Assembly (NCBI RefSeq): GCF_001832885.1 | Contig: NZ_MKIQ01000001.1 | Coordinates: forward strand, 37,017 to 101,016 | From: Floricoccus penangensis | GTDB taxonomy: Bacteria > Bacillota > Bacilli > Lactobacillales > Streptococcaceae | Direction of reading: 5' to 3' | Length of the DNA: 64,000 nucleotides | Shown: in pieces, positions 2,488 to 44,060 of the stretch | Layout of the letters: each line of letters opens with the position of its first letter | Position numbering within the stretch: the first letter of the stretch is position 1 | The notes under the pieces: model-generated | What the model was told of the DNA's origin: nothing | Databases searched by the model: none | Seen by the model: the letters and a program-made list of their open reading frames with translations, nothing else | Made by a program: the position numbers and the translations under genes

Positions 2488-2773
2488 TTATTTAAATATA
2501 TGACCTGCTATTGCACCAATAATTAAGCCAACTAGGTCTCCAATTATTACCATAATAAAAAATGATTTTGTTTTAAAAGGTAAGCCTTTAATTTTATTCT
2601 CCTCTTTGGCAAAATAAAGTATAATAAATAAATTTGCAATCATAATTGCTAAGCATATGACAAAACTAACGATATCAACTTTTGGTGCTGCTAGTATTTT
2701 AAAGAGGAGTACCATATTCTTGAGTATAAGCTTTCTCTAAGCGTTTATCTTTTAAGATAGTTCCTAATTCCAC
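2488..2773 (-). pseudogene. Truncated paralog of the XRE-TM regulator: a 19-codon HTH N-terminus remnant fused out of frame to a 75-aa membrane-domain ORF
   Basis: Minus strand 2773..2716 encodes VELGTILKDKRLEKAYTQEYGTPL*, near-identical to the N-terminus of the intact gene at 1892..2422. It then shifts frame into ORF 2488..2715, whose C-terminus (FFIMVIIGDLVGLIIGAIAGHIFK) resembles the intact paralog's C-terminus (LFILMILGMLLGAVLGGLVGQIIEYF). The HTH-encoding portion is deleted. Confidence 0.5.
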
Positions 2774-2934
2774 TTGTTTAATACCCTTCTTCCTTGATAG
2801 ATTTATTATCTCAAAATGTAACCAACTGTCTATATAAGTTCTTTTACATATGCCAAATTTAAACGTTAAAGTGTTTCACCATAGTAAATATTATATAAAA
2901 AAAGAAGGTGTAATCCTTCTTTTTTATATAAATA

Positions 2935-5274
2935 TTATTGTTTTTTCTTTGAAATAATTATAAGTGATGAAGTTACAAGTATAAGACCTGTTGCTATGAT
3001 TACATAATTGTTTACATCTCCCGTTTTTGGTAAATGTTTACCTGAATTTCTTTTTGGAACATTAGAATTGTTATCTTCATTTGAACTACTGTTAATTGTG
3101 TTGCTAGACTCACTTGTTTGTGTTTGACTCTGTGGATCCTGTGCTTTATTTTTCTTTACAGCATCGTTTACTATATTGTCAATTTCATCTTTAGATATAG
3201 AGTTTTTAATTGCAAGAGTGAATTCATCTTTTTGTTTTTTATTTAAATTCTTAAGGTCATTTATTTCTTTGCTTGTTTTTTCTTTTAGTTCTGCTAATTC
3301 TTGCTCAAGTGATTTTATTTTATCATCTTGACTAGCATTCTTTAAAATAGCACTAATAGAATCATCAGAGTTTGCTTGTTTAATCTCCTCAATATATTTA
3401 GCTTTATCTGTTTCATTGATAATTTTTAAATTATTAATTTCTTTTATTGATTCTAATTTTTTATTTTCAAGTTTAGCTTCAGCTATTATCTTATTGATAT
3501 CTTCAACTGAGTTGGAAGATTGTATGTTATTAATATATTTTGTTTTAGTATCATCAGTCAGAGAAGAAAGTTCATTAATTGTTTTTACTGCATTTTCTCT
3601 ATAATCTAAGACTTCTTTTTTAATAGGAATGATTCTTTCATAAGGGAAGGGTTCTTTCCTATCTTCTGATATTTTTCCTTCATATTTTAAATAGTTAGTG
3701 AAAACTTCATCCATTGAAGGGCCTTCTTCACGAGCACCACCAAGCATGGTATAACCATCTCCACCTGCTGCTAAGAAATCATTTGTTGTTAAGTAATATG
3801 TTTTTTCTAAATTAACATCTTCGAACTGTTTTGATTGTCTATTAAGAAGTTGTACTTTGAGGACGCGTTGACCAGGTGTTTTTTCTTCAGGAACTTCACC
3901 TTGTAAATTTGAATCAAAATACACTTTTACAGAAGATGATACTTGCAAAAATCCACCATTTCTATCAAGAGCAGGTTGCCCTTTTTCATCTAGAACGATA
4001 TTTCCATTTTCATCTTTTAAAGCAATTGATCTTAGAGAATGTTCAAACATGTCATATAGTTGTTGACCATTTACTTCAATTTGTGAAATAGTATTTCCGA
4101 AAGGTAGGACTGATAAAATGTCTCCTTTTGTTATAGTTCCTTCTTTAATTGATTGACGTATCCCACCACCATTTATTATTGCAAGATCACTTTCATGTGT
4201 AAAGCCAGTTTGTCCATATTGATAAAGAGCATCACCGATTAGATTCCCAAGATTAGTTTCACGAGTTCTGACCATAGCACCTTTTCCTTCAAGGTTTACA
4301 GTATTTCCTTCTAAAACTACTTCAGACATATCGTTATTGAAATCACTAGCAACTTGGTTTACAAAGTTGTCAACGTTTGTATTAGCAGGTAATTCTTTTG
4401 CCTCTGAAAATGGTATTAATTTTGCATTTATTGAACTATCGGTGTCAGAATATTTAGCTTCAATTTCTCCTACATTATTTAAGTAGTTACCTGTCTGAGC
4501 TAAAAGAACATTTCCATATTTTTCGCCATTTGGTAATTCTGTATGCGAGTGACCATCGATTATTACAATTTTGTCTGTTGGATGGTTTTTACTCAATTCT
4601 TTGGCAAGAGTTCTACTTTGCCATTCTGTTGGTGTTGTTGCATCTATTCCTAGATGACTAAGAAAAATAAATACATCTGCTTTTCCCTTAAGTTCTTTCA
4701 TATATTTTTCAGCAGTAGGTATTGGATCTTCAAAGGTTACTCCAACGATATTATTTGGATGGGTTTTAGTTGTAGTTTCTGGAGTTGTAAGTCCAATGAT
4801 AGCGAATTTTTTGCCATCTTTCTCTATAATTTTATAGGGATCAAAGGATTGTTGACCATTTTTATATACATTTGCTGATACAAGTGGTGTATATTCTTTT
4901 AATTTCATTGCCTGGTCATATCCAAAATCAAATTCATGATTTCCTGCAGTAGTAGCATCATAAGGGATCATAGTCATACCTTTAGCCATTTCAATTCCTT
5001 TGCTATTATTAGAAATTGGAAGGCCTTGAACTGAGTCACCAGCATCTAGCATTAATGTTGGATTAATTTGATCTTTTAAGCTTTTCAATCGAGCTAAGCC
5101 GATTGATTTATTCTTTTCATCAAATTGCATACGACCATGCATATCATTTGTATGTAAAATAGTAAATGAGAATTCTTCAGCTAAGATTGTATTAGAAAAT
5201 AACAAAGTTGCTGAGCCAATTACTACTATGCCTATGCTTTTTAGGTACTTACCTATACGTTTTTTCTCTTTCAT
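2935..5274 (-). CDS. Cell-wall-anchored 5'-nucleotidase / UshA-family metallophosphoesterase (LPXTG), 779 aa
   Basis: Signal peptide, then metallophosphatase motifs (ILHTNDMHGR, GNHEFD) and a 5'-nucleotidase C-terminal domain. Long K/E-rich coiled-coil spacer. Ends with LPKTG + hydrophobic helix + KKKQ sortase signal. Confidence 0.85.
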   Translation of the reverse strand: MKEKKRIGKYLKSIGIVVIGSATLLFSNTILAEEFSFTILHTNDMHGRMQFDEKNKSIGLARLKSLKDQINPTLMLDAGDSVQGLPISNNSKGIEMAKGMTMIPYDATTAGNHEFDFGYDQAMKLKEYTPLVSANVYKNGQQSFDPYKIIEKDGKKFAIIGLTTPETTTKTHPNNIVGVTFEDPIPTAEKYMKELKGKADVFIFLSHLGIDATTPTEWQSRTLAKELSKNHPTDKIVIIDGHSHTELPNGEKYGNVLLAQTGNYLNNVGEIEAKYSDTDSSINAKLIPFSEAKELPANTNVDNFVNQVASDFNNDMSEVVLEGNTVNLEGKGAMVRTRETNLGNLIGDALYQYGQTGFTHESDLAIINGGGIRQSIKEGTITKGDILSVLPFGNTISQIEVNGQQLYDMFEHSLRSIALKDENGNIVLDEKGQPALDRNGGFLQVSSSVKVYFDSNLQGEVPEEKTPGQRVLKVQLLNRQSKQFEDVNLEKTYYLTTNDFLAAGGDGYTMLGGAREEGPSMDEVFTNYLKYEGKISEDRKEPFPYERIIPIKKEVLDYRENAVKTINELSSLTDDTKTKYINNIQSSNSVEDINKIIAEAKLENKKLESIKEINNLKIINETDKAKYIEEIKQANSDDSISAILKNASQDDKIKSLEQELAELKEKTSKEINDLKNLNKKQKDEFTLAIKNSISKDEIDNIVNDAVKKNKAQDPQSQTQTSESSNTINSSSNEDNNSNVPKRNSGKHLPKTGDVNNYVIIATGLILVTSSLIIISKKKQ

Positions 5275-5436
5275 TCCTACTCCTTTAAAAAAATATTATA
5301 ACAATACTCTAATTATAAGATATAACATTAGCTATGAAAAGCCTTTTATAATAAATTGATCTTAAATTTAACTCTATAGTTCGTATTTTTGGTATATTAA
5401 TATCTATTTGAATATTTATTAACTTTTACAAATTTC

Positions 5437-6036
5437 ATGCCACAATCTAAAAAGTTTGTTGAAAAAGAAGGTGATAAATGTGGCACAACTTCCGATAAAC
5501 AACTTTATTCAGGTCCTTATAAATTTGAAGGAAGGAATGGTACAAATGGGTCATTCAAACTTGTTAAAAATGAAAATTATTGGGATAAGGATAGTGTAAA
5601 AGCACCAGAAATTGATTTTGAAGTTGTAAAACAACCAGAAAATGCGGTCCAAATGTACAAGCAAAATAAACTTGATTTTGCTCCAATTGGTACACCAGAT
5701 TTGTACAATGATAATAAAAATGAAAAAGGTGTGAAATATGTTGCAGAGGCAACTACAGCATATATTCAATACTTACAAAATGGTAAAAATAAAGCTCTTT
5801 CTAATACTAAGATTCGTCAAGCATTAAACTTAACAACTAATAGGAAAGAATTAGTTGATCAAGTAACTGCAGGTGTTTCTAAACCAGCAACTGGATTAGT
5901 ACCTGCTGAACTTGCTAAAACAAGTGATGGAAAAGATTTAGCAGAATTTGTTAAACAACCTTATACATATAATGTTGATGATGCTAAAAAACTATGGGAT
6001 GAAGGATTAAAAATGAAGGAAAATCAAATAAAGTAA
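5437..6036 (+). pseudogene. Internal fragment of an oligopeptide-binding lipoprotein (OppA-like, SBP family 5)
   Basis: The 199 aa match only the middle of OppA/DppA-type binding proteins (NENYWDKDSVK, KQNKLDFAPIG, IRQALNLTTNRKELVDQV). There is no signal peptide or lipobox; the frame opens only at 5401 and stops at 6036. Confidence 0.6.
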
Positions 6037-6884
6037 AAGCTATTGATAACATCAGTTTTCAAATCCATAAAGGAGAGGTATTTGGATTAGTTGGTGAATC
6101 AGGTTCAGGTAAAACAACAGTTGGCAGAACACTTCTTAAGTTATATGAACCAACTAGTGGTGAAATTATTTTTGACGGTGAAGATGTGACAGCATTGAAG
6201 AAAAAAGAACTCTTTCAATTCAGGAAAAACGCTCAAATGATTTTTCAAGATCCTCAAGCAAGTCTAAATGGTCGAATGAAGATTAAGGATATCATTGCAG
6301 AAGGAATAGATGTCCACAATCTCGCCTCTTCTTCCGAAGAACGAGATAAAATGGTTGATAATCTTTTAAATCAGGTAGGTTTAAATAAAGATCATTCTTC
6401 AAGATATCCTCATGAATTTTCTGGAGGACAAAGTCAAAGAATAGGGATTGCTAGAGCATTAGCAGTTGATCCTGAGTTTATAATTGCTGATGAGCCAATA
6501 TCAGCACTTGATGTATCAATTCAAGCTCAAGTAGTAAACTTGATGCAGGAGTTACAACGTGATAAAGAACTTACATATCTATTTATTGCACATGATCTTA
6601 GTATGGTGAAGTATATTTCAGATAGAATTGCTGTAATGCATTGGGGTAAAATTTTAGAATTAGGTCCTGCAGAAGAAATTTATAATAATCCAATACACGA
6701 TTATACTAAATCATTAATTTCTGCAATTCCGACTCCTGATCCTGAAATTGAAAGAAGTAGGAAAATAGAAGTTTACGACCCAACTGCTGAATTAGATGGT
6801 CAAGAAAGAGAAATGCGAGAAGTTAGATCAGGTCACTATGTTCTATGTACTGAATCAGAGTTTTTAGACTATAAGAATGCTTAG
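6003..6884 (+). pseudogene. N-terminally truncated oligopeptide ABC ATPase (OppF/OppD-like) with no usable start
   Basis: Frame open from 6003. It encodes [28 protein letters not shown] (Walker A), LSGGQ (FSGGQSQR), Walker B (IIADEP) and an Opp-type C-terminal extension. There is no ATG/RBS before Walker A (first candidate is GTG 6186, downstream of Walker A). It abuts the OppA fragment, and no permease genes are present. Confidence 0.6.
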
Positions 6885-6929
6885 TATAAAAAATATCTCA
6901 TATGTTGAGATATTTTTTATTAAGAATAA

Positions 6930-6959
6930 TTGTTTTTAAGAATAAAAAATTGTGTTATA
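6930..6959 (+). promoter_or_regulatory. Promoter TTGTTT-N19-TGtTATAAT placed 6 nt before the yabO ATG (near-leaderless)
   Basis: Extended -10 TGTTATAAT at 6951..6959 and ATG at 6968. Confidence 0.4.
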
Positions 6960-6967
6960 ATCTAGGC

Positions 6968-7252
6968 ATGAGATTAGATAAATTTTTAAAAGTTAGCCGT
7001 CTTATTAAACGACGTACAGTCGCTAAAGAAGTTGCTGATAAAGGAAGAATAAAATTAAATGGTGTACTGGCTAAAAGTTCAAGCACTGTAAAATACGATG
7101 ATATTTTGACTATCCAGTTTGGAAATAAAATAGTTGAGGTACGCGTACTTGAAACTAAGGATAGTACAAAAAAAGAGGATGCAGGCAAGATGTATGAGTT
7201 GCTGAGCGAAACGAGGATTAATCAAGATGTCAAAGAAGAAGAGAGTCGTTAG
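6968..7252 (+). CDS. S4-domain RNA-binding protein (YabO / Hsp15-like), about 94 aa
   Basis: [33 protein letters not shown] is the S4 signature. Start chosen at the internal Met; the upstream 22 codons of ORF 6902 are a low-complexity extension. Confidence 0.7.
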
Positions 7253-7622
7253 ACTTAATAATGATTATACTAACGCTAGTATAGTAAAACAGCAAAATCA
7301 TATAAAAGAAAAATTACCCAGACGTAAATATATGGGAATTATTTCAGTCATAGCTGTTGTTTTAATGTCTCTTTCTGTGGTAAACCTTGTAAAAAGCTAT
7401 ACAGAGCTTGAGAGCAAGATGAAACTTGAGAAAAAATATACAGAAGAAGATAAGAATTTGGGTGCTTCTCTTGATATGAAAGAAAAACAAGTAGTTAAAT
7501 TACAAAATGATGATTATGTAGCAAAGTATGCGCGTGTTAAGTATCTATATTCAAAGGATGATGAGCTAGTCTTTACAACACCTGATTTGTTAACTACAAA
7601 TCAAGGAAATGAAAAAAAATGA
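7227..7622 (+). CDS. divIC: Septum-formation initiator DivIC/FtsB-like, 131 aa
   Basis: Short cytoplasmic tail, a single TM ([18 protein letters not shown]), then a coiled coil. Sits at the conserved position between yabO and the S1 protein. Confidence 0.6.
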
Positions 7623-7912
7623 TTGAAAATCAATACAAAATTTCTAATATAACTAAATTTGGTATATTTGTTGATTTAGATGATAATAGGACTGGTTTAG
7701 TTAGATGGTCAAATGTTCCAAAGAATGAGAAGTATCATATTGGTGATTATGTGAGTATCATTATATTAAATACTCATCCAGATGGAAAAATTGACTTGGA
7801 GATATCTACTGAAGATTTCAATGATAGGTTTGAAAATTTTATAAGTACTTCATATATTAGATTGGCTGAATTACAAGAGAAAAATAAGCACATAAGAGAT
7901 TTTATAAAATAA
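7619..7912 (+). CDS. S1-domain RNA-binding protein (YabR-like), 97 aa
   Basis: S1 fold signature (FGIFVDLDDNRTGLVRWSNV) and position upstream of tilS. Confidence 0.65.
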   Translation: MIENQYKISNITKFGIFVDLDDNRTGLVRWSNVPKNEKYHIGDYVSIIILNTHPDGKIDLEISTEDFNDRFENFISTSYIRLAELQEKNKHIRDFIK

Positions 7913-7950
7913 AAAAACTCCAGGTTACTACTTAATCTGGAGTTGAATTT
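7913..7950 (+). terminator. Rho-independent terminator (aaaaaaCTCCAGgttactacttaatCTGGAGttgaatttttt)
   Basis: GC stem plus T-run after the S1 gene. Confidence 0.6.
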
Positions 7951-7984
7951 TTTCAAGATATAAAAATTATAATTAAAACTAAAT

Positions 7985-8037
7985 GTTTACATATTTGTTT
8001 ACATTTATATTTACAAACATGTAAACATAAAATGATA
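7985..8037. promoter_or_regulatory. About 50-bp imperfect palindrome ATGTTTACAT-ATTTGTTTACA...TGTAAACAAACATGTAAACAT upstream of tilS-hpt-ftsH
   Basis: Inverted repeat read directly; half sites TGTTTACA / TGTAAACA repeated twice on each arm. Confidence 0.4.
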
Positions 8038-8049
8038 AAATAAATACTA

Positions 8050-9309
8050 TTGGGGGTAATTTTCATAGATAATTTGATAGAAAATAAGTTTTTGGAAGAA
8101 GTGAAAAATAATCATTTATTTGATGGTCACTCAAAAGTTTTGATCGCACTATCTGGAGGTATTGACTCACAAACATTATTCAACCTGCTTTACAAATTTA
8201 GAAAAGAATTGAATTTAGAGATAGGTGTTGCTCATGTTAATCATAAAGTTAGAGATGAAAGCGATGATGAGGAAAGAATATTAAGACGTAGAATGTCTGA
8301 AATTGAAGTTCCTTTTTATTGTGATTGCTTTACAGATGAGTTTACGGAAAGTAAAGCACGTGATTTTAGATATAGTTTTTTTCAAAAAGTTATGGGAGAA
8401 AATAATTATACTTGTCTAGTTACTGCTCATCATTCTGATGATGTTGTGGAGACAGTATTTATGCGTCAACTTAGGGGGAGTCGTTTGAGGCACCTCACAG
8501 GAATTAAACAGAAACAAAGTTTTGCTAATGGAGAACTCATTCGTCCTTTACTTAATTTTAAAAAATCTGACTTTGATACTAAAGATTACTTTGATGACTA
8601 TACAAATTATGAAAATGAATATTTAAGAAATCGTATTAGAAATCAATACATTCCAGAGCTAGAAAAAGAAAATCCAGCTTTTAAAAAATCAATTTTATCC
8701 TTATCTAAAGAAGTTGAAGCTGCAATGTGTGTAATTAACAATAGTATTAAGAATTTGAATTTTGAAAAAGATAAGATCGATTTAGAAAAATTCTTAAATC
8801 AAGACCAATCTTTACAATACTTTATACTGCAAGATTACCTTGATAATTATAAGGATATTAGTATTGGGCGAGATCAATTTGATCAACTATTACATATAAT
8901 TAGAAAAAGTGGACAATTTAACCAAAGGATAAATAAAAATTATTCCCTAATAAAGGATGATAAGAATTTTTATCTTACATCAGATAGTTTACCTGAATCA
9001 AAGGTAGAATATGAAGTTTCAAGAATCAAACCACAAAATCTTAACTATAAGGAAATTTATATCCCAAAAAATGCAAACTATTTTGTTCGAGGAAGAGAAG
9101 AAGGCGACCGTATTTTGTTAAACGGAATCAATAAAAAGGTCAAGAAATACTTTATTGAACAGAAAATTCCTTTAAAAATGCGAGAAATGGCTCAAATGTT
9201 AGTTGTTGAGGGCCAAATCTATGAAATTTTGGGAATTACGACAAGTGATTTGAGTAAATCGCTTAAAAATGCTAAAATGAATGATACTTTATACTATTTT
9301 GAAAGGTAA
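8050..9309 (+). CDS. tilS: tRNA(Ile)-lysidine synthetase, 419 aa (TTG start uncertain)
   Basis: PP-loop SGGIDS motif and length. Conserved order tilS-hpt-ftsH. Confidence 0.85.
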
Positions 9310-9313
9310 GAGA

Positions 9314-9853
9314 ATGTTAGAACAAGACATAAAAAAAGTGTTAATTTCGGAAGATGAGTTACAAGCAAAAGCAGTTGAATTAGGGGAAGTTTTGACTAAT
9401 GACTATGCAGGAAAAAATCCTTTAGTAGTTGGAATCCTTAAAGGTTCAGTACCTTTCTTAGCTGATTTAATAAAAAGAATTGATGCCCACTTGGAAATGG
9501 ACTTCATGGTAGTTTCAAGCTATCACGGTGGAACTTCTTCTAGTGGAGAAGTGAAACTAATCAAGGATTTAGATACGAGTGTGGAAGGACGTGATATTTT
9601 AATAGTTGAAGATATCATTGACACAGGTCGTACTCTTAAATACTTAGCTGAGCTTTTGGAACACCGCAAGGCTAATTCAGTTAAAATTGTTACTTTACTT
9701 GATAAACCAGAAGGTCGTGTTGTTGAAATTGATGCTGACTATGTAGGTTTCCAAGTACCTAATGAGTTTGTAGTTGGATACGGACTTGATTTTGATGAAA
9801 ATTATCGTAATTTACCATATATTGGTGTATTAAAGGAAGAAATTTATCAATAA
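9314..9853 (+). CDS. hpt: Hypoxanthine-guanine phosphoribosyltransferase, 179 aa
   Basis: PRPP-binding motif ([13 protein letters not shown]). Start at internal ATG 9314 with RBS AAAGGTAAGAG. Confidence 0.9.
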
Positions 9854-10012
9854 TTCAGTCTAAGGTACCATTGAGTAATAGTGGATATTGGACTATAATT
9901 TGTGAGGATATGGACTTAATCTAATTATTCTGATATTTAGATATCCATAGTTGGCATTTTTTTAAATTTTTTGCCATAATAAGAAAATATTAAAGGTTAG
10001 AAAAGGAAATAA

Positions 10013-12040
10013 ATGAACAATAAGAAAAATAACGGATTCGTTAAAAATTCCTTTTTGTATTTACTACTTATAGTAATTGCAGTTGTTGGTTTTCAATGGT
10101 TAATTGGTGATACCTCAACGGCAGTAAATAAAGTTAGTTATACGGAATTTGTAAAGGAACTCAAGGATGGTGACATTAAAGATTTAAGTTATCAACCATC
10201 TAGCGGTCTTTTAGAGATAAAAGGTAATTACAAATCTGAAAAAACTGTAAAGTCTGATCAAGACTTAAAACTATTTGGTGGAACAGCAACTACTAAAGTA
10301 AAAAAATATAAAACTTTAGTTCTTACAAATGATTCTACTATTTCAGAAATTCAAAAGTTGGCGGCAGACTCTTCTACTAAGGTTACGGTAGTACCTGAAA
10401 GTTCTAGCGGTATATGGTTGAGCTTCTTGATGTCATTCTTACCACTTATTTTACTTGTTGGTTTCTTCTATATGATGATGAATGCTGGTGGTGCTGGTGG
10501 TCGTGGTGCTGGTGGTACTATGAACTTTGGTAAATCCAAAGCTAAACAACAAGATAAATCTGCTAATAAAGTTAAATTTGAAGATGTAGCTGGTGCAGAG
10601 GAAGAAAAACAAGAACTTGTTGAAGTTGTTGAATTTTTGAAAAACCCTAAGAAATATACTAAATTAGGCGCACGTATTCCCGCAGGTGTACTACTTGAGG
10701 GCCCTCCAGGAACTGGTAAAACTTTACTAGCTAAAGCTGTTGCCGGTGAAGCTGGCGTTCCATTTTTCTCAATTTCAGGTTCTGACTTTGTAGAGATGTT
10801 TGTCGGAGTGGGAGCAAGTCGTGTACGTGATTTATTTGAAAATGCTAAGAAAAATGCTCCAGCCATAATCTTTATCGATGAGATTGATGCTGTCGGTCGT
10901 CAACGTGGTGCCGGTATGGGTGGAGGAAATGATGAGCGTGAACAAACACTTAATCAACTCCTTGTAGAGATGGATGGTTTCCAAGGTAACGAAGGTATTA
11001 TAGTAATCGCCGCAACTAACCGTAGTGACGTACTCGATCCAGCCCTTCTCCGTCCTGGACGTTTTGACCGTAAGGTTTTAGTTGGTGCTCCCGACGTTAA
11101 AGGACGTGAAGCTATATTACGAGTTCATGCGAAGAATAAACCTCTTGCGGATGATGTAAATCTTAAGGTAGTTGCACAGCAAACTCCAGGTTTTGTCGGT
11201 GCTGACCTTGAAAATGTACTTAATGAAGCTGCATTAGTTGCTGCTCGTCGTGATAAAAATCTTATTGATGCATCAGATATTGATGAAGCAGAAGATCGTG
11301 TAATTGCTGGTCCTGCTAAGAAAGATAAAAAAGTATCTGATAAAGATCGTGAGACTGTAGCTTATCATGAGGCAGGTCATACAATTGTTGGTCTTGTATT
11401 ATCAAACGCTAATATCGTTCATAAGGTTACAATTGTACCCCGAGGACGTGCTGGTGGATATATGATTTCACTACCTAAAGAAGATCAAATGCTTCTATCT
11501 AAGGAAGATATGCAAGAACGTCTCGCAGGTTTACTTGGTGGACGTACTGCAGAAGAAATTATCTTTAACCGAATCACAACAGGTGCCTCAAATGACTTTG
11601 AGCAAGCTACACAATTAGCTCGTGCTATGGTGACTCAATATGGTATGAGTGATAAACTTGGTACGGTTCAATATGAAGGTAATCAATCAGTCTTTATTGG
11701 GCGTGATTATGGTCAAACTAAGGGTTATAGTGAAGCAACAGCACTTGCTATTGATGAAGAAGTTCGTCGTATTATTAGCGAAGCCCATGAACAAGCTCGT
11801 CAAATAATTGAAGATAATCGTGAAGCGCATAAAAATATTGCTATGGCACTTCTTAAATATGAAACACTAGATGCTCGTCAAATTAAGTCAATTTACGAAA
11901 CTGGTAAAATGCCAGCGGATTTTGTTGATGATGAACCAGAAGTTGCTCAAACTTATGAAGAAGTTAAAGAACAGTATGAGAAGCACGATGAAGAACGTGA
12001 ACAAGAAGAAGAAAAAGAAGTGGGTGAAACAGCTGAATAA
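10013..12040 (+). CDS. ftsH: ATP-dependent zinc metalloprotease FtsH, 675 aa
   Basis: Two TM helices, AAA Walker [17 protein letters not shown] zinc motif and an acidic C-terminal tail. Confidence 0.95.
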
Positions 12041-12100
12041 TCTCAGCTGTTTTTCTTTTTGTCTATTTTTCCATTACTGAGCTCAGAAAAAAGAATCATC

Positions 12101-12133
12101 TTGCAATCTTAGGCTATTTTTTGTAAAATGAAT
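12101..12133 (+). promoter_or_regulatory. Promoter TTGCAA-N17-TAAAAT for the permease gene
   Basis: Spacing and consensus read from sequence. Confidence 0.45.
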
Positions 12134-12207
12134 AAATACTCAAAAAGTTAGAAAATTATGAAATATCACTTAAAGTAAGTGAAATTTTATTTAAGAAGGA
12201 TTTATTT

Positions 12208-13590
12208 ATGAACATATTTCGTACGAAAAATTTGACCGCAGATAAGACAGAGATGAAGCGAGAGCTTAAAACTTGGAATCTGGTAATGCTTGGACTTGGA
12301 GCGATGGTCGGAACAGGTATATTTACAATTACAGGTATAGGAGCAGCTATCTATGCGGGGCCTGCTCTAATAATTTCAATTATAATGGCTGCCTTTGCTG
12401 TTGGTTTATCGGGCTTATTCTTTGCTGAATTTGCCTCTCGCTTACCGGTTATAGGTGGTGCTTATGGTTATTTATATGCAGTTTTTGGAGAATTTATTGC
12501 TTGGATAGCTGGTTGGCTAATGATCATGGAATTTATGTCAGCAATATCTGGCGTTGCAGCTGGATGGGGTTCATATTTAAAAGGTATGTTCAATCTCAAT
12601 CTACCTTTGGCAGTTTCTGGTCCATTTGATCCTGCTAAAGGTACTTATATTGATATAATGCCCGTACTTGTTATTTTGGCAGTTACTGCTTTATTGCTGT
12701 TAAATTCAAAGCTTGCGCTTGGTTTTAATAGTGGTTTGGTTATTTTAAAATTCTCAGCTCTAATATTATTTATTGTTGTTGGGGTATTCTATATTAAACC
12801 AGATAATTGGTCGGACTTTGCACCTTATGGTTGGGGTTCATTCTTCGGGGGTAAGACGGGTATAATTGGTGGAGCAGCTATAATGTTCTTTGCCTTTCTA
12901 GGATTTGAATCAATAGGTACCGCAGTTGATGAAACAAAAGATCCTCAAAAATCAATTCCTCGTGGGATTATTGGATCACTTATAATTGCTACACTTTTTT
13001 ACATCATTATTACACTTGTGTTGACAGGAGTTGTAAATTATAAAAACTTAAATGTTGAGGATGCTGTAGCATTTGCACTACGTTCAGTAGGTGCTACCTG
13101 GGCTGCAAATTACGTTTCAGTTGTCGCTATCTTTACGTTGATTACTGTGTGTATTTCAATGACCTATGCTAATGCTCGAATGATTTATGGGATTAGTCGT
13201 GATGGACTATTACCAAAATCATTAAGTAAACTTACTGTAAAGTCTAAGATACCTAAAAATGCTACAATACTTGCTGGTTTGCTTTCAGCATTTGCCGCAG
13301 GCTTTACATCACTTAACCAATTAACTGAATTTGTAGTTATCTGTACCTTGGCTTACTTAATCTTATTAGCAGCTGGAATTATTAAACTAAGAAGAGATCA
13401 AGGAGCACCTAAAGAAGGACAATTTAAAACTCCTTGGGTACCTTTTCTACCTATTGTTTCAATCATTATTTGTATAGGATTTATGACACAGTTTGAAGCT
13501 AAAACTTGGATTGCATTCATAGTTGCATTGATAATTGCGGTAGTAATTTATTTCGCTTATGGTTATAAAAATAGTGAAATTAATGAGTAG
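12208..13590 (+). CDS. APC-family amino-acid permease, 460 aa
   Basis: 12 TM helices; N-terminal signature LVMLGLGAMVGTGIFTITG. Confidence 0.8.
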   Translation: MNIFRTKNLTADKTEMKRELKTWNLVMLGLGAMVGTGIFTITGIGAAIYAGPALIISIIMAAFAVGLSGLFFAEFASRLPVIGGAYGYLYAVFGEFIAWIAGWLMIMEFMSAISGVAAGWGSYLKGMFNLNLPLAVSGPFDPAKGTYIDIMPVLVILAVTALLLLNSKLALGFNSGLVILKFSALILFIVVGVFYIKPDNWSDFAPYGWGSFFGGKTGIIGGAAIMFFAFLGFESIGTAVDETKDPQKSIPRGIIGSLIIATLFYIIITLVLTGVVNYKNLNVEDAVAFALRSVGATWAANYVSVVAIFTLITVCISMTYANARMIYGISRDGLLPKSLSKLTVKSKIPKNATILAGLLSAFAAGFTSLNQLTEFVVICTLAYLILLAAGIIKLRRDQGAPKEGQFKTPWVPFLPIVSIIICIGFMTQFEAKTWIAFIVALIIAVVIYFAYGYKNSEINE

Positions 13591-13689
13591 TCAGTATTAA
13601 TTTATAAAGTCATCTGAATGTTTCATGTGAAACATTTAGATTTATAATTGATTGTATGAAAAAAGCAGTTTGGATTTTATTCCAAGCTG

Positions 13690-14580
13690 CTATTTTCTTT
13701 TTAAAATACTTTTTTTCTCTTTAACTTCATAAGTAAAACCACTTCCAACTATTTCATGGACATTGATAACTGAAATAAAGGCATTTGGATCAATTTCTGC
13801 GGTTAATTGTTTTACAGCTAATACTTCTTGCGGATTAAGAACTACATATATAATTTTTTTCTTATCACCAGAGTATGCGCCTTCTCCGTTAAGATAAGTT
13901 GCTCCTCGATCAATCTCTGCAACAATTTTTTGAGTTATTTCATCGTGTTTATCAGAAATAATAAGCATACCACGGACAGTATATCCACCAGTTTCAACAA
14001 GTCCTACAACATTTGAAAATACAAAGCTTGCAATTAATGTATACATCATATGTCTGATATCAATATACGAAAGACTTGCTAGTAGAACGATAGAGTCAAT
14101 AATTAATAAAGTTTTACCTAATTGAGCACCACGTTTAACTTCAAAAATCTTAGCAACAATATCTCCTCCACCTGATGTACCCCCATAGCGGAAGATTAAT
14201 CCGCTACCTACACCAGCAAATATTCCAGCAAGAAGTGCTGCAATAAGAAAGTCATTATCTATATTAATAGTGAAGTTAACTCTTTGGAAGAGATAAATAA
14301 AGAATGACATGGTTAGAGTACCATATACTGTATAAAATAGTGCTTTTTTCCCACCAAGATATTTATATCCCATTATAAATAAAGGAATATTAATAATAAC
14401 TTGAGAATAAGATGGATCTATGTGAAATAGGTTATACAAAATTAAAGTAATACCAGCTAGACCACCTTCAGCAAGATGATTTGCCATATTGAAGTTAACG
14501 AATCCAAAGGCATAGATAGCAGCACCAAGTGCAATCATGAAAAGATTGACCGGGTTAAAAATAGATTCATTTTTTTTCAT
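13690..14580 (-). CDS. YitT-family membrane protein (DUF161 + DUF2179), 296 aa
   Basis: Architecture and motifs (GGTSGGGDI..., C-terminal soluble DUF2179-like domain). Confidence 0.7.
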   Translation of the reverse strand: MKKNESIFNPVNLFMIALGAAIYAFGFVNFNMANHLAEGGLAGITLILYNLFHIDPSYSQVIINIPLFIMGYKYLGGKKALFYTVYGTLTMSFFIYLFQRVNFTINIDNDFLIAALLAGIFAGVGSGLIFRYGGTSGGGDIVAKIFEVKRGAQLGKTLLIIDSIVLLASLSYIDIRHMMYTLIASFVFSNVVGLVETGGYTVRGMLIISDKHDEITQKIVAEIDRGATYLNGEGAYSGDKKKIIYVVLNPQEVLAVKQLTAEIDPNAFISVINVHEIVGSGFTYEVKEKKSILKRK

Positions 14581-14621
14581 ATAAATAAGATTTTCCCTTT
14601 ATAAATTTATTAATTAGATGA

Positions 14622-15518
14622 TTAATCATCAACAAAATTCCCAAGAATTTTAACGTTTTCGGAAATTGAAACGAAGGCCTTGTCATCAACTTTTTTCATA
14701 ATGGCCTTGAAAAAAGAAAATTCAGCCCGAGTAATTATAGTAATTAAAACTGTTGTTTTATCATGTGTATATGCACCTTCAGCATTATTAATGATAGTCA
14801 CTCCACGATGAAGTTTGTCTTGTATGGCTTTACAAACTTCAGGAGCTTTTTTAGTAACAATCATAACCTGCATTCTCTTTTGCTTAGTATAGACAGCATC
14901 TGTAACGCGACTTGATACAAAAATTGTTAAGAGTGAGTAAAACATATACTTCCAACCAAATAGAATGCCGGTAATTAGGACTATAACGGTATTAAACATT
15001 AATGAAATGAAACCAACATTTCTTCCTGTTTTTTTTCTAATAGAGATACTTATAATATCAGTACCACCACTTGATATTCCGTTACGTAATCCGTAACCAA
15101 TCCCTGTTCCCATTGTAAGACCACCAAAAATAGCATTGATGATAGGATCCGTTGTAAGTGTAACCTCTGGAACAAGTTGGATGAAGATTGAACTAAGAGT
15201 TACAGTTAGGATGGTATAAATTGTAAACTTATGTCCAATTTTATACCAAGCAAGAACAAAAAGTGGAAGATTAAGTGCATAGAGGGTTACTGATACAGGA
15301 ATAGTATAACCTAACCAATTATGACTTAATGTAGTTAAGATTTGTGCTAAACCTGTAATACCACTTGAGTAAATGTGACCAGGTTGAAAGAAAAAGTTGA
15401 TAGCGACACTTGATAGTATGGCATAAACTACTGCAGCAGAGAAACGTTCAGTAAACTGCTCCATTGCAGTAGCTTTCTTCATAGTATCTTCAGGGGATTT
15501 TTTGAAGGTGAATTTCAT
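14622..15518 (-). CDS. YitT-family membrane protein paralog, about 298 aa (start ATG 15518 preferred over TTG 15545)
   Basis: Paralogous to 13690..14580 (GTGIGYGLRNGISSGGTDI). Tandem duplicate. Confidence 0.7.
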   Translation of the reverse strand: MKFTFKKSPEDTMKKATAMEQFTERFSAAVVYAILSSVAINFFFQPGHIYSSGITGLAQILTTLSHNWLGYTIPVSVTLYALNLPLFVLAWYKIGHKFTIYTILTVTLSSIFIQLVPEVTLTTDPIINAIFGGLTMGTGIGYGLRNGISSGGTDIISISIRKKTGRNVGFISLMFNTVIVLITGILFGWKYMFYSLLTIFVSSRVTDAVYTKQKRMQVMIVTKKAPEVCKAIQDKLHRGVTIINNAEGAYTHDKTTVLITIITRAEFSFFKAIMKKVDDKAFVSISENVKILGNFVDD

Positions 15519-15522
15519 AGTA

Positions 15523-17277
15523 TTAGTCTTTTTTCTTTTCCTCAACTGAAAGGCTTAATTCAGCAAGCTGTTTGTCAGAAACTAGGCTAGGAGCTTCTGT
15601 CATTGGATCAGTAGCTTTATTATTTTTAGGGAAGGCGATAACTTCACGAATATTATCTTTTTTAGCTAAAAGCATAGCAAATCTATCAAGACCAAGAGCT
15701 AGTCCTCCGTGTGGTGGGAAACCATATTCAAGTGCTTCTAAAAGGAATCCAAATTGGTCTTTTGCGTCCTCAGCAGTAAACCCAAGAGCTGTAAACATTC
15801 TTTCTTGTAATTCACGTTTGTTGATACGTAGGCTACCACCACCAAGTTCATAACCATTTAATACGATATCATAAGCAACTGCACGTACTTTTTCAAGATC
15901 TGATTCAAGATAGTGTGCTGTGTCTTCTGTTGGAAGTGTAAATGGGTGGTGAGCAGACATATAACGACCCTCTTCTTCGCTATATTCGAACAATGGCCAG
16001 TCGATAACCCATAGGAAATTGAATTTGTCGTTGTCAATTAAATCAAGTTCTTTAGCTAGACGACCTCTTAGGGCACCTAAAGTAGTATTAGCAACATCTA
16101 AATCGTCAGCTACAAATAAAATTAAATCTCCATTTTCAGCAGATAATTCTTCTAAGAAATCAGACGTTTTATCTGTTAGGAATTTAGCGATTGGACCAGT
16201 TAATTGATCGTTATCAACTTTTACCCATGCAAGGCCTTTTGCACCGAAATCTTTGGCAAAATCAGTAAGCTTGTCAATATCTTTACGTGAATATTTGTCA
16301 GCAGCACCTTTTGCAACGATTGCCTTTACAACTGGAGCTTCTGCAAATACTTTGAAATCAACTGTTTTTGCAAGTTCTGTCAAGTCTTGTAACTTCATTT
16401 CATAGCGTGTATCAGGTTTATCATTGCCATAGAAGTTCATAGCGTCATTATAGGCCATACGTGGGAAAGGAAGGGTAACATCAATATTAAGAGTTTCTTT
16501 CATTACTTTAGCAAGTAAACCTTCAGTGATATCTTGAATTTCTTGTTCAGATAAGAAAGAAGTTTCAAGGTCGACTTGTGTAAACTCAGGTTGACGGTCT
16601 CCACGTAAATCTTCATCACGGAAACATTTAACGATTTGATAATAACGGTCAAAGCCAGCATTCATTAAAAGTTGTTTTGTTAATTGCGGACTTTGTGGTA
16701 AAGCATAGAAGTGACCTTCCGAGATACGACTTGGTACAAGATAGTCACGTGCGCCTTCGGGTGTTGATTTAGTAAGTACTGGTGTTTCAACATCAATAAA
16801 GTTTAAATCATCAAGATAGTGTCTGATTGATTTAGTAATTTGATGGCGAAGTTTAAAGTTTTTAAGCATTTCAGGACGACGAAGGTCAAGGTAACGATAT
16901 TTAAGACGAGTGTCGTCATTTACAGTAACATCATCTTTAATTTCAAATGGAGTAGTTTTAGCAGTATTTAGAATAGTTAATTCGTTTACAGCAAGTTCTA
17001 TTTGTCCAGTTGGGATGTTGTTATTTGCTGATGCACGTTCAACTACCTCACCTGTAACTTCAATAACATATTCATTTCTTAAAGATTCGGCATCTTTCAT
17101 CAAGTCTTCTGATACATTTTCAGGATTAATAACCAATTGCATGATACCTTCACGGTCACGTAAATCAATAAAGATTAATCCACCAAGGTCACGACGACGT
17201 CCAACCCATCCTTTAAGAGTAACAGTTTGACCAATATTTTCGCTTCTTACATCACCAGCATACATAGTTCTTTTCAT
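15523..17277 (-). CDS. aspS: Aspartate--tRNA ligase, 584 aa
   Basis: Class II aaRS motifs, OB-fold N-terminus, GAD insertion, C-terminal ...GGLALGLDR. Confidence 0.95.
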
Positions 17278-18566
17278 TATAAAATCTCCTCTAATAGTTC
17301 ATCAAAAATTGGGTTAAAATCTTCATATACATTTTCAAGAGTTGTAGCAACTTCTCGACGATTTTCATTGTTTTTAACTATAATATTACCCGTAGTTGCT
17401 TCTTCTTCCCCTAAAGTGATAATAAGTTTAGCATCATATGCTTCAGCAGATTTGAATTGGGCTTTAATTTTACGTCCCAGATAATCACGGTCAGCAACAA
17501 AACCTTGTTCACGTAAACTTTGAACAACCTTTAATGCTGGGTAATTTGCTTCATCACCTAGAACCACAACATAAACATCAAGAGAATTAGCAGTTGGTAT
17601 TTCGATACCTTGTTCTTCCATAATTAGAAGAAGTCTTTCGATACCCATTCCAAAACCAAAACCTGGAGTAAATGGTCCACCAAAATATTCAACGAGACCA
17701 TCATAACGACCACCAGCACAGATTGTTAACTCAGACCCTTTAACATCAATCATAAATTCGAAGATTGTGTCATTGTAATAGTCAAGACCACGAACCATAG
17801 TATGGTCAATTGTATATTCAATATTAAGAGCATCAAGCATTGAACGTACTTGATTAAAATGATCAAGACTCGCTTCAGTTAAATAATCTAGTACTTTTGG
17901 AGCCTCAAGCACGATTTCTTTATCTCTTTTATCTTTGCTGTCAAGTATACGTAAAGGATTTTCGGTCAGTCTGCGTTTGCTATCATCAGACAATTCTTCT
18001 GCATAAGGAGTCAGATAGTCAACCAGTGCTTGACGGTATGCAGCACGACTTTCTTTGTCACCTAGGCTATTAAGGTGAAGTCTTACACCTTCTATACCAA
18101 GTTGTTCAAAGAATGCTTGAGCCATAGCAATTGTTTCAACATCAGTAGCTGGATTTTTTGACCCAAAGCACTCTACTCCGATTTGGTGGAATTGACGCAT
18201 ACGTCCTGCTTGAGGACGTTCATAACGAAACATTGGTTCAGTATAATAAAGTTTAACTGGCTTTTGAACCTCGGGTGCAAACATTTTGTTTTCAACGTAA
18301 GAACGAACAACTGGAGCAGTACCTTCTGGGCGAAGTGTTATATGGCGTTCACCTTTATCGTAGAAGTCATACATTTCTTTTGTTACGATGTCACTTGTAT
18401 CACCAACAGAACGACTAAATACTTCATAGTGTTCGAAGATTGGAGTACGGATTTCCTTATAGTTATAGCTTGAAAAAACAAGATTGGCTGTTTCTTCAAT
18501 GAATTGCCATTTGTTACTTTCAGTAGGGAGTATGTCATTTGTCCCTTTTGGTTTTTGTAGTTTCAT
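17277..18566 (-). CDS. hisS: Histidine--tRNA ligase, 429 aa
   Basis: Class II motifs and HisRS signature (RGLDYY, GGRYDGL). Overlaps the aspS start by 1 nt. Confidence 0.95.
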
Positions 18567-25704: not shown

Positions 25705-27654
25705 ATGAAAAAATGGTTTATAGCCATTTTATTGTTGTTTTCTATTACTCTCCCACTTAATGTTAATGCAGGTGCGGATCAACTCAAGGATCAGGAGCTA
25801 ATTAACTCAGCTCCATACATTAAACCTTTAAAAGAAAATGGTAAGAAAATATTATTTGATAATACACATGCTCAGACAGCTGGAGCTGCTGATTGGGTCA
25901 TTGATGGAGGATTTTCTGATTTTGCTGATGGTCTTGTGAAAGAAGGTTATTACGTAAAGGAACTTCGAAAGTTTACTCCTATAACCCTTCAAGACTTAGA
26001 AGACTATGATGTATTTGTAATACCTGAAGCTAATATCCCATATAAAGCAGAAGAGCAAAATGCAATAGCTGCCTATGTTTCAGGTGGAGGTTCTGTATTT
26101 TATATAGGTGATCACTATAATGCCGATCGAAATAAGAATAGGATTGATGCACCAGAAGCATTTAATGGTTTTCGCAGAGGTGCATACACAGATATGACAC
26201 TTGGTATGGATGATGGAGAGCGTAATTCCCAGGCCATGCAAGGAGTAGTTAGTAGAGATTGGTTAAATGATACATTTGGTGTTCGTTTTAGATATAATGC
26301 GCTTGATAATATTGATGCCCCAATGATTATGGAAAATACATTTGGCATTTTAGACAATGTAAGTGATGTTGCTTTGCATGCTGGTGGAACAATTGCAATA
26401 ATGGATAATAAACGTGCCAAAGGAATTGTTTACCCTCCAGAAGGACTCACAAAAGAAACTAACCGTTGGCCTAACGCTACTGATGATGGAGTGTATAATG
26501 GTGGTGGAGTTGCGGAAGGTGCTTATATTGCCATCAGTAAAAAAGATAAAGGAAAGGCAGCCTTCCTTGGAGATTCTTCACTAGTTGAAGATGCTAGTCC
26601 TAAATATAGAAATGAAGAAACTGGAAACTTGAAGAGGACATACGATGGTTACAGCGAAAAAGATGATTCTCGTCTCTTGATGCAACTTATTAATTGGCTA
26701 GCTATTCAAGAAGATTATTCAGATTTTAGTAATAAAGGAATAAATTTATCAGAAAAAACTAGTTTACATGATTTTGAGATTCCAGAAAATAGTACAGAGC
26801 CACAAGCAGAGCCTTGGGGGAAACCACAAAAGGGTTATAAATGGTATGACCGTTCTACTTTTGCAGCAGGAAGTTATGGATCAAATATTGATCCAGATAA
26901 GTTACCTAAAGTAGAGATTATTTATGATAACTTGCCTGTTGTGGGTGAAGAGGTAAAACTAAAAGTTATTTTTACTAACTACAAAGCAAATACAGTTTTG
27001 AAGGACTATACTTTAGGTATTTACAATCCAACCGAAGGACAGAATGGTCTTAAACAAGGTGAGCAAGTTGCTGATACAAAAGTAGGAGAAGGTGAGTGGA
27101 AAAATAATAAATCTTATTCAAATACTTTTGATATCCAGACGGATAAGTACGGAAATGCTGAACAAGAAATCACCGTCAAAGTAGATATTGAAGGAAATTA
27201 CAATATTAGATTGAAACAAGGCAAAAATAATGTTATAACTGATACTATAGTGTTCGCTACTCAGAATGATGTCGAAAAACCACAACCTAATATTGATGTT
27301 GAATATTCAAATAGGATTGCAGTAGGTAAGGAAAGTAAGGTTTCAATAAAGTTTACCGATTTTAGTCCTAATACTGATCTAAGAGACTATGTTTTAGATG
27401 TATATAGTCCAGTCTCTTATTTGGGAAATGAAGCAGGAAGTGGTTATGCTTTTGTTAAATCAAGTGATGGTAAATGGAGCAACAAACGTGATTCATCTGA
27501 ATCATTTGATGTTTTGACAGATAAAGATGGTAATGCCTCTATAGAGTTAACTATTCGTACAACTGACGCAGGTGACTTTATTCTTCGTTTGCGAAAGAAC
27601 AATGAAGAGCAATTTAGTAGTAAGATTCAATCTTTATGGTATTTACCAAGTTAA
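25705..27654 (+). CDS. Secreted protein, 649 aa, with an N-terminal ~340-aa domain and two C-terminal ~125-aa tandem repeat (beta-sandwich-like) domains
   Basis: Signal peptide MKKWFIAILLLFSITLPLNVNA. Internal repeats (KVIFTNYKANTVLKDYTLGIYNP...ITVKVDIEGNYNIRLKQ versus KVSIKFTDFSPNTDLRDYVLDVYSP...ELTIRTTDAGDFILRLRK). Confidence 0.55.
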   Translation: MKKWFIAILLLFSITLPLNVNAGADQLKDQELINSAPYIKPLKENGKKILFDNTHAQTAGAADWVIDGGFSDFADGLVKEGYYVKELRKFTPITLQDLEDYDVFVIPEANIPYKAEEQNAIAAYVSGGGSVFYIGDHYNADRNKNRIDAPEAFNGFRRGAYTDMTLGMDDGERNSQAMQGVVSRDWLNDTFGVRFRYNALDNIDAPMIMENTFGILDNVSDVALHAGGTIAIMDNKRAKGIVYPPEGLTKETNRWPNATDDGVYNGGGVAEGAYIAISKKDKGKAAFLGDSSLVEDASPKYRNEETGNLKRTYDGYSEKDDSRLLMQLINWLAIQEDYSDFSNKGINLSEKTSLHDFEIPENSTEPQAEPWGKPQKGYKWYDRSTFAAGSYGSNIDPDKLPKVEIIYDNLPVVGEEVKLKVIFTNYKANTVLKDYTLGIYNPTEGQNGLKQGEQVADTKVGEGEWKNNKSYSNTFDIQTDKYGNAEQEITVKVDIEGNYNIRLKQGKNNVITDTIVFATQNDVEKPQPNIDVEYSNRIAVGKESKVSIKFTDFSPNTDLRDYVLDVYSPVSYLGNEAGSGYAFVKSSDGKWSNKRDSSESFDVLTDKDGNASIELTIRTTDAGDFILRLRKNNEEQFSSKIQSLWYLPS

Positions 27655-27705: not shown

Positions 27706-28761
27706 ATGAAAGCAAAAAAATTATTTGCAACTAGTATGGTAGCTGTTGCTACGGCTGCACTTTTGGTTGGTTGTGGTTCTAAGGAATCAAAAACTAAAGA
27801 ATCTGATTCAGGTTCTAAAGCTCTTGATGAGTTAAACGTGATGTTTGTACCATCTAAGAATCCTGATGATATTAAAACTGCGACAGAACCTTTGAGCAAC
27901 TTATTAAAAGAAGAGTTGAAAAAAGAAGGTGTTGAAGTTAAGGATGTTAAAATCTCTGTTGGTACTGACTTCCAAGCAGTAGGTGAAGCTTTAAGTTCAG
28001 GAACTGCTGATGTGGGCTACGGAGTGCCAGGTGGAACTTATGCAGTATACAAAGATGAAACTGATGTTATCTTGACTGCTACACGTAAAGCTTTAAACAA
28101 AGATAGTGAAAAAGCTAAGGACTGGAATGATGGAAAACCAACTGTAGCAACTGATGAAGAAGCTAAATCATACCGCTCGCTTTTAATTGCTGGTCCTTCT
28201 GCAAAAGGTCAAGAACTTGCAAAAAAAGTTAATGCTGGTGAAGAACTTACATGGGATGATCTAAACGGAGCTAACTGGGGACTTGCATCACCTACCTCAT
28301 CTGCTGGATATATTTATCCTTCTCTATGGTTGAATGATAATGTAAAACATAATATTACTGAACTTAAATCAACAGTTCAAAATGATTCATATGGTTCAGG
28401 TTTTGCTCGTTTAGCTTCTGGTCAAATTGATGTTATGCCTGTTTATGCTGATGCACGTCGTGACTTTGAAAAAGCATGGTCTTCTGAATATGGTAAGAAA
28501 GATATTTGGACTGAAACTAATGTAATTGGTGTTACTGTTCCTATTTACAATGATGCTATATTAGTTTCTAAAAAATCTGATAAGATGGATGATAAAGTCA
28601 AAGGAGCATTGCAAAATGCTTTGATCAATATGGCAAAAACTGAAGAAGGTAAAAAAGTTATTGCTGTATATTCTCATACTGGATATGTAAAGGCTACTGA
28701 TTCTGACTATGATACAGAAGTTAAAGCTCAAGAGCTTATGAAATCACAAAATAAAAAATAA
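27706..28761 (+). CDS. phnD: Phosphonate/phosphite ABC transporter substrate-binding lipoprotein, 351 aa
   Basis: Lipobox LLVGCGS, PhnD-like SBP fold, and operon with phnC/phnE. Confidence 0.8.
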   Translation: MKAKKLFATSMVAVATAALLVGCGSKESKTKESDSGSKALDELNVMFVPSKNPDDIKTATEPLSNLLKEELKKEGVEVKDVKISVGTDFQAVGEALSSGTADVGYGVPGGTYAVYKDETDVILTATRKALNKDSEKAKDWNDGKPTVATDEEAKSYRSLLIAGPSAKGQELAKKVNAGEELTWDDLNGANWGLASPTSSAGYIYPSLWLNDNVKHNITELKSTVQNDSYGSGFARLASGQIDVMPVYADARRDFEKAWSSEYGKKDIWTETNVIGVTVPIYNDAILVSKKSDKMDDKVKGALQNALINMAKTEEGKKVIAVYSHTGYVKATDSDYDTEVKAQELMKSQNKK

Positions 28762-28775
28762 GAGAATTTAAAGCC

Positions 28776-28812
28776 GAATATAGACTGAGCATTCGCTCAG
28801 TCTATATTTTGC
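28776..28812 (+). terminator. Intra-operon hairpin ATATAGACTGAGCattcGCTCAGTCTATATTTTG (attenuating terminator between phnD and phnC)
   Basis: 13-bp perfect stem followed by a T-rich tract. Confidence 0.55.
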
Positions 28813-28833
28813 CTATTAATAAGGAGTACATTT

Positions 28834-29595
28834 ATGATTAAAATGGAACATGTTTCCAAAGTTTATCCAAATGGAACTGTTGGTTTGGATGATATAAATT
28901 TAGAAATTGAACAAGGTGAGTTTGTAGCTATTATCGGTACAAGTGGGGCCGGTAAATCTACTTTGATTCGTACTATTAATCGATTGACTGATATTACAGA
29001 TGGTAATTTAACAGTAAATGGAACCGATGTTGCAAAATTAAAACGTAATGATTTACGTAAGTTTCGTCAATCTATCGGTATGATTTTTCAATCGTATAAT
29101 TTAGTTCCACGTATTTCAGTTATTAAGAATGTTTTAAATTCTCGTGTTTCTCAAATGAATTTTTTATCTGTATTATTCTCTCGATTTTCAAAAGAAGATA
29201 AACAAATGGCTTTGGAGTCTCTTAACCGTGTGGGAATTTTAGATAAGGCGTACGTTCGTACAGATGAACTATCTGGAGGACAGCAACAGCGTGTATCTTT
29301 AGCAAGAACACTAGCTCAAGATCCTCAAATCTTACTTGCAGATGAACCAGTAGCAGCACTTGATCCAGTAACAGCAAATGAAGTTATGGATAACTTTAAG
29401 AAAATTAATAAAGAGTTGAATAAGACTGTATTGATTAACATTCACCATGTCGATTTGGCACTTAAATATGCTGATAGAATTATTGCTATTAAAAAAGGAA
29501 AAATAGTTTTTGATGGACCAAGTAGTGAAGTAACGCAAGAGATCTTGGATGAAATTTATCAAAAAGAGGATGGCGTAAAAAATGACAAAGTATAA
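28834..29595 (+). CDS. phnC: Phosphonate ABC transporter ATP-binding protein, 253 aa
   Basis: Walker A GTSGAGKST, LSGGQQQR and Walker B LLADEP. Confidence 0.85.
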   Translation: MIKMEHVSKVYPNGTVGLDDINLEIEQGEFVAIIGTSGAGKSTLIRTINRLTDITDGNLTVNGTDVAKLKRNDLRKFRQSIGMIFQSYNLVPRISVIKNVLNSRVSQMNFLSVLFSRFSKEDKQMALESLNRVGILDKAYVRTDELSGGQQQRVSLARTLAQDPQILLADEPVAALDPVTANEVMDNFKKINKELNKTVLINIHHVDLALKYADRIIAIKKGKIVFDGPSSEVTQEILDEIYQKEDGVKNDKV

Positions 29596-30403: not shown

Positions 30404-30421
30404 ACAATTGAAGGAGAGAAA

Positions 30422-43805: not shown

Positions 43806-44060
43806 TAATAAGAGCGAAGAAAAGTAGCATTTGGAATGATTTCAGAGAATTGGCGGGTAGTGCGAGTCAATATCATAAAAAGTGTGAATGGGCTTTGCTT
43901 AAAATCATGATTTGAAAAAATAAAAATCACGGTAGTCACCGATATCAGACAATTGTTTTGTAAGACAATTAGAGGGAATAGATATGTTCCGAATTGTGGT
44001 GGTACCGTGTCGTGAGACGCCCGCATATAGATTATTAATCTATATGCGGTTTTTTGTTTT
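43806..44060 (+). promoter_or_regulatory. T-box riboswitch leader of trpS
   Basis: T-box core GAATTGTGGTGGTACCGTGTCG (43991..44012) overlaps the 5' arm of the terminator CGCATATAGATTattaATCTATATGCGGTTTTTTG (44019..44056). Upstream AGAGA-containing stem-I region. Confidence 0.75.

Follow-up and report, generated by a model that had tools for sequence, protein, structure and literature searches.

A probable deletion remnant of an Opp/Opt-type peptide ABC importer operon in Floricoccus penangensis

The Opt (formerly Dpp) peptide ABC transporter is said to have been characterised by Lamarque et al. in 2004 and by Sanz et al. in 2001. In one published account (PMC5736914), the Opt operon of Lactococcus lactis has the gene order optSABCDF. 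The intact operon of Floricoccus tropicus has the same layout, with a tandem pair of family-5 binding-protein genes ahead of B, C, D and F, and the Lactococcus loci share 67–70% identity with Floricoccus in OppF, 72–75% in OppD and 56–65% in OppB/OppC. This likeness to lactococcal Opt, as opposed to streptococcal Opp, is one of gene layout, and orthology to Opt in particular is only putative. In a scan of one genome per species, the OppF frame described below best matched F. tropicus DF1 (98% identical) and then streptococcal OppF (76% aa). These closest OppF proteins outside Floricoccus come from oppABCDF loci such as those of the S. equinus/gallolyticus group, which are intact and contiguous (oppA-B-C-D-F) with a single oppA, and which lie in another chromosomal neighbourhood. 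The ABC_tran domain and oligo_HPY C-terminal extension of E. coli OppF/DppF (PDB 8z21_D, 8z1v_D) also align with this frame, over residues 36–285 of the OppF chain 8z21_D; the frame differs from them in lacking the N-terminal strands and an initiation codon.

The intact Floricoccus operon belongs to the Opp/Dpp (PepT) ABC importer family (TC 3.A.1.5). We analysed a 64-kb stretch of F. penangensis DNA (the window) and found that its copy, in contrast to Lactococcus Opt, consists of 36% of one binding-protein gene and 95% of oppF, with which no transport is possible. Comparison at the sequence level indicates that the region is very probably what is left, now non-functional, of an operon oppA1-oppA2-oppB-oppC-oppD-oppF for an Opp/Opt-type peptide ABC importer.

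The close comparator is one genome, F. tropicus DF1, whose contig L001 (NZ_MKIR01000024) is syntenic with the window at 90–95% DNA identity by blastn, which fits the published ANI of 93.7% between F. penangensis and F. tropicus (PMC11758030). The opp genes are not discussed in that genome paper. The gene order in L001 is nt5(−), oppA1, oppA2, oppB, oppC, oppD, oppF, S4, divIC, S1, tilS, hpt, ftsH. Thus, the intact six-gene opp operon, on the plus strand, sits between a minus-strand gene for an LPXTG-type cell-wall 5'-nucleotidase and the S4-domain/divIC/tilS/hpt/ftsH block, and both flanks are common to the window. The distance between the nt5 start (5274) and the S4 gene start (6968) is 1.7 kb in the window, against 7.9 kb in DF1. 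Window and L001 align in three collinear blastn blocks separated by two gaps (Table 1). Because the match to the intact DF1 operon is collinear, of high identity and found at the corresponding place in the chromosome, the window copy derives from a member of the Opp/Opt/Dpp importer family, although it retains none of the complete sets of subunits, set out below, that make a functional member.

Table 1. Features of the opp locus in the F. penangensis window and in the intact F. tropicus DF1 locus. Positions are those of the window unless L001 is given.
Feature	Position	Strand	Basis or description
Retained intergenic DNA, left flank of deletion 1	5275–5406		= DF1 L001 3049–3179; blastn and alignment
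Deletion 1 junction	5407–5414		Two blastn segments overlap; base-by-base comparison
Internal oppA2 fragment (family-5 solute-binding protein)	5407–6012	+	Codons 184–385 of 554, DF1 orthologue
Mechanical ORF, 199 codons	5437–6036	+	ORF list, translation, junction alignment
Deletion 2 junction	6012		blastn segments and base-by-base comparison
oppF fragment, codons 17–306 plus stop (290 codons plus stop)	6012–6884	+	DF1 OppF alignment
A+T-rich hairpin and T run directly 3' of oppF stop	6887–6924	+	RNA fold
Block 1	2713–5414 = L001 487–3187		90.6%; blastn
Block 2	5407–6012 = L001 5664–6269		93.7%; blastn
Block 3	6012–13591 = L001 10001–17578		94.6%; blastn
oppA1	DF1 L001	+	Product 551 aa
oppA2	DF1 L001	+	Product 554 aa
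oppB	DF1 L001	+	Product 304 aa
oppC	DF1 L001	+	Product 365 aa
oppD	DF1 L001	+	Product 359 aa
oppF	DF1 L001	+	Product 306 aa

Contiguous oppA(A)BCDF was found in 46 of 46 other OppF loci recovered, save for loci cut by a contig end, and the intact arrangement is therefore taken as ancestral. The preliminary description had expected alignment to intact relatives to map the breakpoints, which it did; the order of the reference loci is oppA(A)BCDF, not oppDFBCA as named there. Among the loci recovered, opp adjoins the S4/divIC/tilS block only in Floricoccus, as might be expected if F. tropicus had gained the operon by insertion and the window preserved the ancestral state. An empty site, however, would not hold in-register pieces of two operon genes with 98% amino acid identity to DF1, and gene fragments that lack starts or ends derive only from complete genes. 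We rejected an operon insertion in F. tropicus on account of the gene fragments in the window, and regard gain in that direction as next to impossible. The in-register internal pieces of two genes mean that the event was a loss in the window, not a gain in DF1.

At the first gap, 2,484 bp are missing relative to DF1. Its junction carries an 8-bp microhomology, TTTGAATA, which can be assigned to either flank. At the corresponding edges in DF1, TTTAAATA (L001 3180–3187) and TTTGAATA (L001 5664–5671) match at seven of eight positions, and the direct repeat flanking the deletion is an imperfect one of 8–9 bp. The DNA retained to its left lies upstream of the divergent 5'-nucleotidase gene. The missing segment held the predicted opp promoter region, all of oppA1 and codons 1–183 of oppA2. 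At the second gap, 3,732 bp are missing, with 1 nt common at an almost blunt junction; here, codons 386–554 of oppA2, the whole of oppB, oppC and oppD, and codons 1–16 of oppF are gone. The two promoter-like sites that ranked best in a consensus scan of the DF1 locus, TTGACA-17-TATCAT (L001 3216–3244) and TTGACA-17-TAACAT (L001 5049–5077), are consensus matches that both lie inside deletion 1, and a consensus scan of the plus strand found no promoter-like site upstream of 5437 in the window. Two copies of the octamer ATGAAGGA, 15 bp apart, lie on either side of the second junction (5998–6005 in oppA2 and 6013–6020 in oppF), neither of them at the junction itself.

A single deletion, running from the oppA 3' end through oppB, oppC and oppD to the oppF 5' end, had been proposed in the preliminary description. 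Alignment with DF1 bears out this span but not the number, as there are two gaps; the additional one, upstream and 2,484 bp long, explains why the 5' third of the OppA fragment is missing too. In the window's lineage, 6.2 kb were very probably lost, either through two separate deletions or through a single complex event that spared 606 bp in between. The first deletion, between imperfect direct repeats, accounts for the missing 5' third of oppA2, for oppA1 and for the promoter region; the second, near-blunt, accounts for oppD, the two permease genes, the 3' third of oppA2 and the first 16 oppF codons.

Gene remnants left by deletions with a few bases of microhomology at the junction are common. 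The locus resembles microhomology-mediated deletion pseudogenes in its short direct repeat, its near-blunt second junction and the truncated pieces left in place, and only the 606-bp island left between the gaps stands out. The event is ordinary gene loss, of which the locus offers a clean microhomology-associated example.

A further deletion remnant lies nearby on the minus strand (2491–2773), in a second gene for an XRE-type HTH/membrane protein. The gene is intact in DF1 (L001 35–547, 170 aa); in the window, residues 1–20 correspond to 2773–2714 (100% identity) and residues 95–170 to 2718–2491 (97%), and a stretch of about 227 bp, whose length is not a multiple of 3, has been lost at a CATA microhomology. 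A paralogue with 56% identity is intact at 1892–2422(−). In all, three deletions relative to DF1 (227 bp, 2,484 bp and 3,732 bp) fall within about 3.5 kb of the window.

Such clustering could also be the mark of a contig that was mis-joined or collapsed in a strain with an intact operon, as could the absence of any decay in the remnants, and oppA1 and oppA2, paralogues with 74% amino acid identity over the fragment, are of a kind that can confuse assemblers. However, neither junction joins homologous positions of the paralogues, the first leading from intergenic DNA to mid-oppA2 and the second from mid-oppA2 to the start of oppF. The microhomologies, of 1–8 bp, are much shorter than the k-mers that assemblers use and are what genuine illegitimate recombination typically leaves, and flanking collinearity is perfect over >10 kb. 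We rejected a repeat collapse of oppA1 with oppA2, as the junctions lie at non-homologous positions, and consider an assembly artefact of any kind very unlikely. Metagenome scans with the exact sequence of junction 2, and with a degenerate pattern to its left that would catch both intact and deleted alleles, returned no match.

Both retained pieces correspond to fragments of genes that are intact in DF1. The OppA-like frame is open from 5401 and ends in a stop codon at 6034–6036. It had been described as the middle part of a binding protein, and it indeed matches Pfam SBP_bac_5 over profile positions 88–277 of 368 only (E = 1.2e-33), in keeping with the oppA2 codons listed in Table 1. Its NCBIfam matches are weak and all fall in the mid-region of 500–550-residue peptide- or nickel-binding proteins. 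In a protein homology search, the closest match to the OppA fragment was 63% identical, in a database evidently without Floricoccus proteins. Exact look-ups of four window proteins (the products of the 199-aa and 232-aa ORFs, TilS and FtsH) retrieved no record. Compared with DF1, the oppA2 fragment has 4 non-synonymous and 34 synonymous differences in 202 codons.

The preliminary description had allowed that the 5437–6036 product might be a complete small domain protein and that the ATPase might have a validated upstream start. We rejected the former, as the product is an internal, in-register part of the 554-aa orthologue: the ATG at 5437 encodes Met194, inside OppA2, and the last 8 codons of the ORF (6013–6036) are oppF 5' sequence read out of frame to a chance stop. 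No Shine-Dalgarno-like sequence was found before this ATG.

For the ATPase, no such start emerged. The −1 frame opens at 6003, overlaps the OppA-frame ORF by 33 nt and ends at a stop codon at 6882–6884. Its coordinates and its assignment to an OppF-type ATPase are as first described: Pfam finds ABC_tran (E = 5.3e-34) and the Opp-specific oligo_HPY region, and the best full-length-type NCBIfam matches are OppF models, aligned from about position 33 of 334. Neither these matches nor those of the OppA-like frame can be put down to chance. The frame is 97.6% identical in amino acids to residues 17–306 of DF1 OppF; by this count 16 N-terminal residues are missing, close to the 15 or so originally estimated. 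Walker A (GESGSGKT), the signature motif, Walker B and the oligo_HPY C-terminal region are intact. As had been claimed, the stretch from 6003 to Walker A contains no ATG, GTG or TTG, and the first in-frame candidate, GTG 6186, lies downstream of Walker A. The fragment therefore has no start codon, and it has no ribosome-binding site. The hairpin that follows the oppF stop (RNA fold −16.5 kcal/mol, z = −6.2 against shuffles) was missed by a G+C-dependent terminator scan; it is a retained terminator-like end of the former operon. An Rfam scan of the window placed no RNA family in 5275–6930.

A functional importer of this type needs a complete family-5 extracellular binding (lipo)protein that has both lobes and its N-terminal signal, two permease subunits (OppB and OppC; BPD_transp_1) and two translatable ATPase subunits (OppD and OppF). 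The oppA2 fragment lacks the signal peptide/lipobox region and the C-terminal lobe, so that only one partial lobe remains, and no other family-5 binding-protein gene (oppA) was found in the 64 kb. The absence of permease genes noted in the preliminary description was confirmed by tblastn with DF1 OppB and OppC (E <= 1e-5), which found no homologue of either in the 64-kb window; the only BPD_transp_1 genes there (29582–31249) belong to a phosphonate-type system. oppD is absent as well, and the sole OppD match at the locus by tblastn is a paralogous one (45%) to the oppF remnant, which has the ATPase motifs without being translatable from its own start. With no export or lipidation signal, a partial lobe, no permeases, no oppD and no start before the P-loop, there can be no working transporter.

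The remnants show no sign of decay: over 1,473 nt, there are 0 stop codons, indels or frameshifts. Nei-Gojobori estimates against DF1 gave dN/dS = 0.024 for the oppA fragment (dS 0.34, dN 0.008) and 0.044 for the oppF fragment (dS 0.24, dN 0.010), and the intact neighbour genes gave 0.0 (hpt), 0.026 (ftsH) and up to 0.27 (S1). The 11 non-synonymous differences in the remnants are approximately what a functional gene would show at such divergence, with an excess over the functional baseline of about 1–2 substitutions, so that, as a rough estimate, no more than a few per cent of the divergence would have built up neutrally since the deletion. Given intact frames and dN/dS of 0.02–0.04, we take the loss of the operon to be recent, and possibly strain-specific. 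Accordingly, the pseudogene marks that come from relaxed selection (internal stops, frameshifts, raised dN/dS) are absent, and those that come from loss of the start codon, promoter and partner genes are present, the promoter being judged by consensus evidence only.

Low dN/dS and intact frames are also expected under continued selection, and we attribute them to recency; the remnants could instead be expressed and have kept or gained a function, as a cytosolic OppA'-'OppF fusion made by −1 slippage or as an orphan ATPase started from a non-canonical codon. The 33-nt overlap with OppF in the −1 frame, an A5 run exactly in this overlap, the junction-created TTA-AAA-A at 6007–6013, and the intact ATPase motifs together with low dN/dS would all suit such a product. 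However, the site, A-TTA-AAA, departs from the canonical X-XXY-YYZ slippery heptamer, and no obvious stimulatory structure accompanies it. The missing Shine-Dalgarno at 5437 and the deletion of both predicted promoters speak against expression, the permease partners are absent, and a product from GTG 6186 would have no Walker A. Moreover, the junction is a by-product of deletion and is absent from the only close relative. We therefore hold a functional remnant to be highly improbable. In its most specific form, a chimeric gene would start at the Met194 codon (5437) and shift by −1 on TTA-AAA-A to give a selected, soluble fusion of an OppA lobe with the OppF ATPase. Such a fusion would account for the undecayed frames, and we give it very little credence; a weaker variant would have the 606-bp island retained for carrying something useful. 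On the preferred reading of a recent loss, the remnants are probably silent and biologically inert.

For annotation, the ORFs at 5437–6036 and 6186–6884 should be flagged as pseudogene fragments and not as 'peptide-binding protein' and 'ABC ATP-binding protein'. The loss would mean that this Floricoccus strain or lineage recently gave up one peptide-uptake system that its sibling species keeps, a finding of little general importance. It may have consequences for nitrogen supply on plant surfaces, where the main source is perhaps free amino acids and not peptides.

Loss of the opp promoter may have left the downstream housekeeping genes unaffected, since the S4-domain gene has its own extended −10-like sequence, TGTTATAAT, at about 6953–6961. 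The ORF of this gene was called from ATG 6902 (116 aa), and its start is probably ATG 6968 (MRLDKFLKV...), which places the −10-like sequence before the start and inside the longer ORF call. The S4-domain protein is 100% identical to its DF1 counterpart.

Elsewhere in the window, the other ABC systems are the phosphonate-type importer (27706–31249) and an ABC-F protein (35654–37276). Directly upstream of the former, a 649-aa ORF (25705–27654, +) has no Pfam match above threshold, and its sub-threshold match is to ABC_transp_aux (E = 6e-6, 26 bits against a cut-off of 34.7). Tandem paralogues of a YitT/DUF2179 membrane protein (296 and 307 aa; 13690–15545, −) adjoin aspS-hisS (15523–18566). A T-box leader (43808–44027, +; 101.8 bits) lies upstream of the ORF at 44106–45134, and there are three tRNA genes, at 50482–50553 (−), 50660–50731 (−) and 51191–51263 (+).
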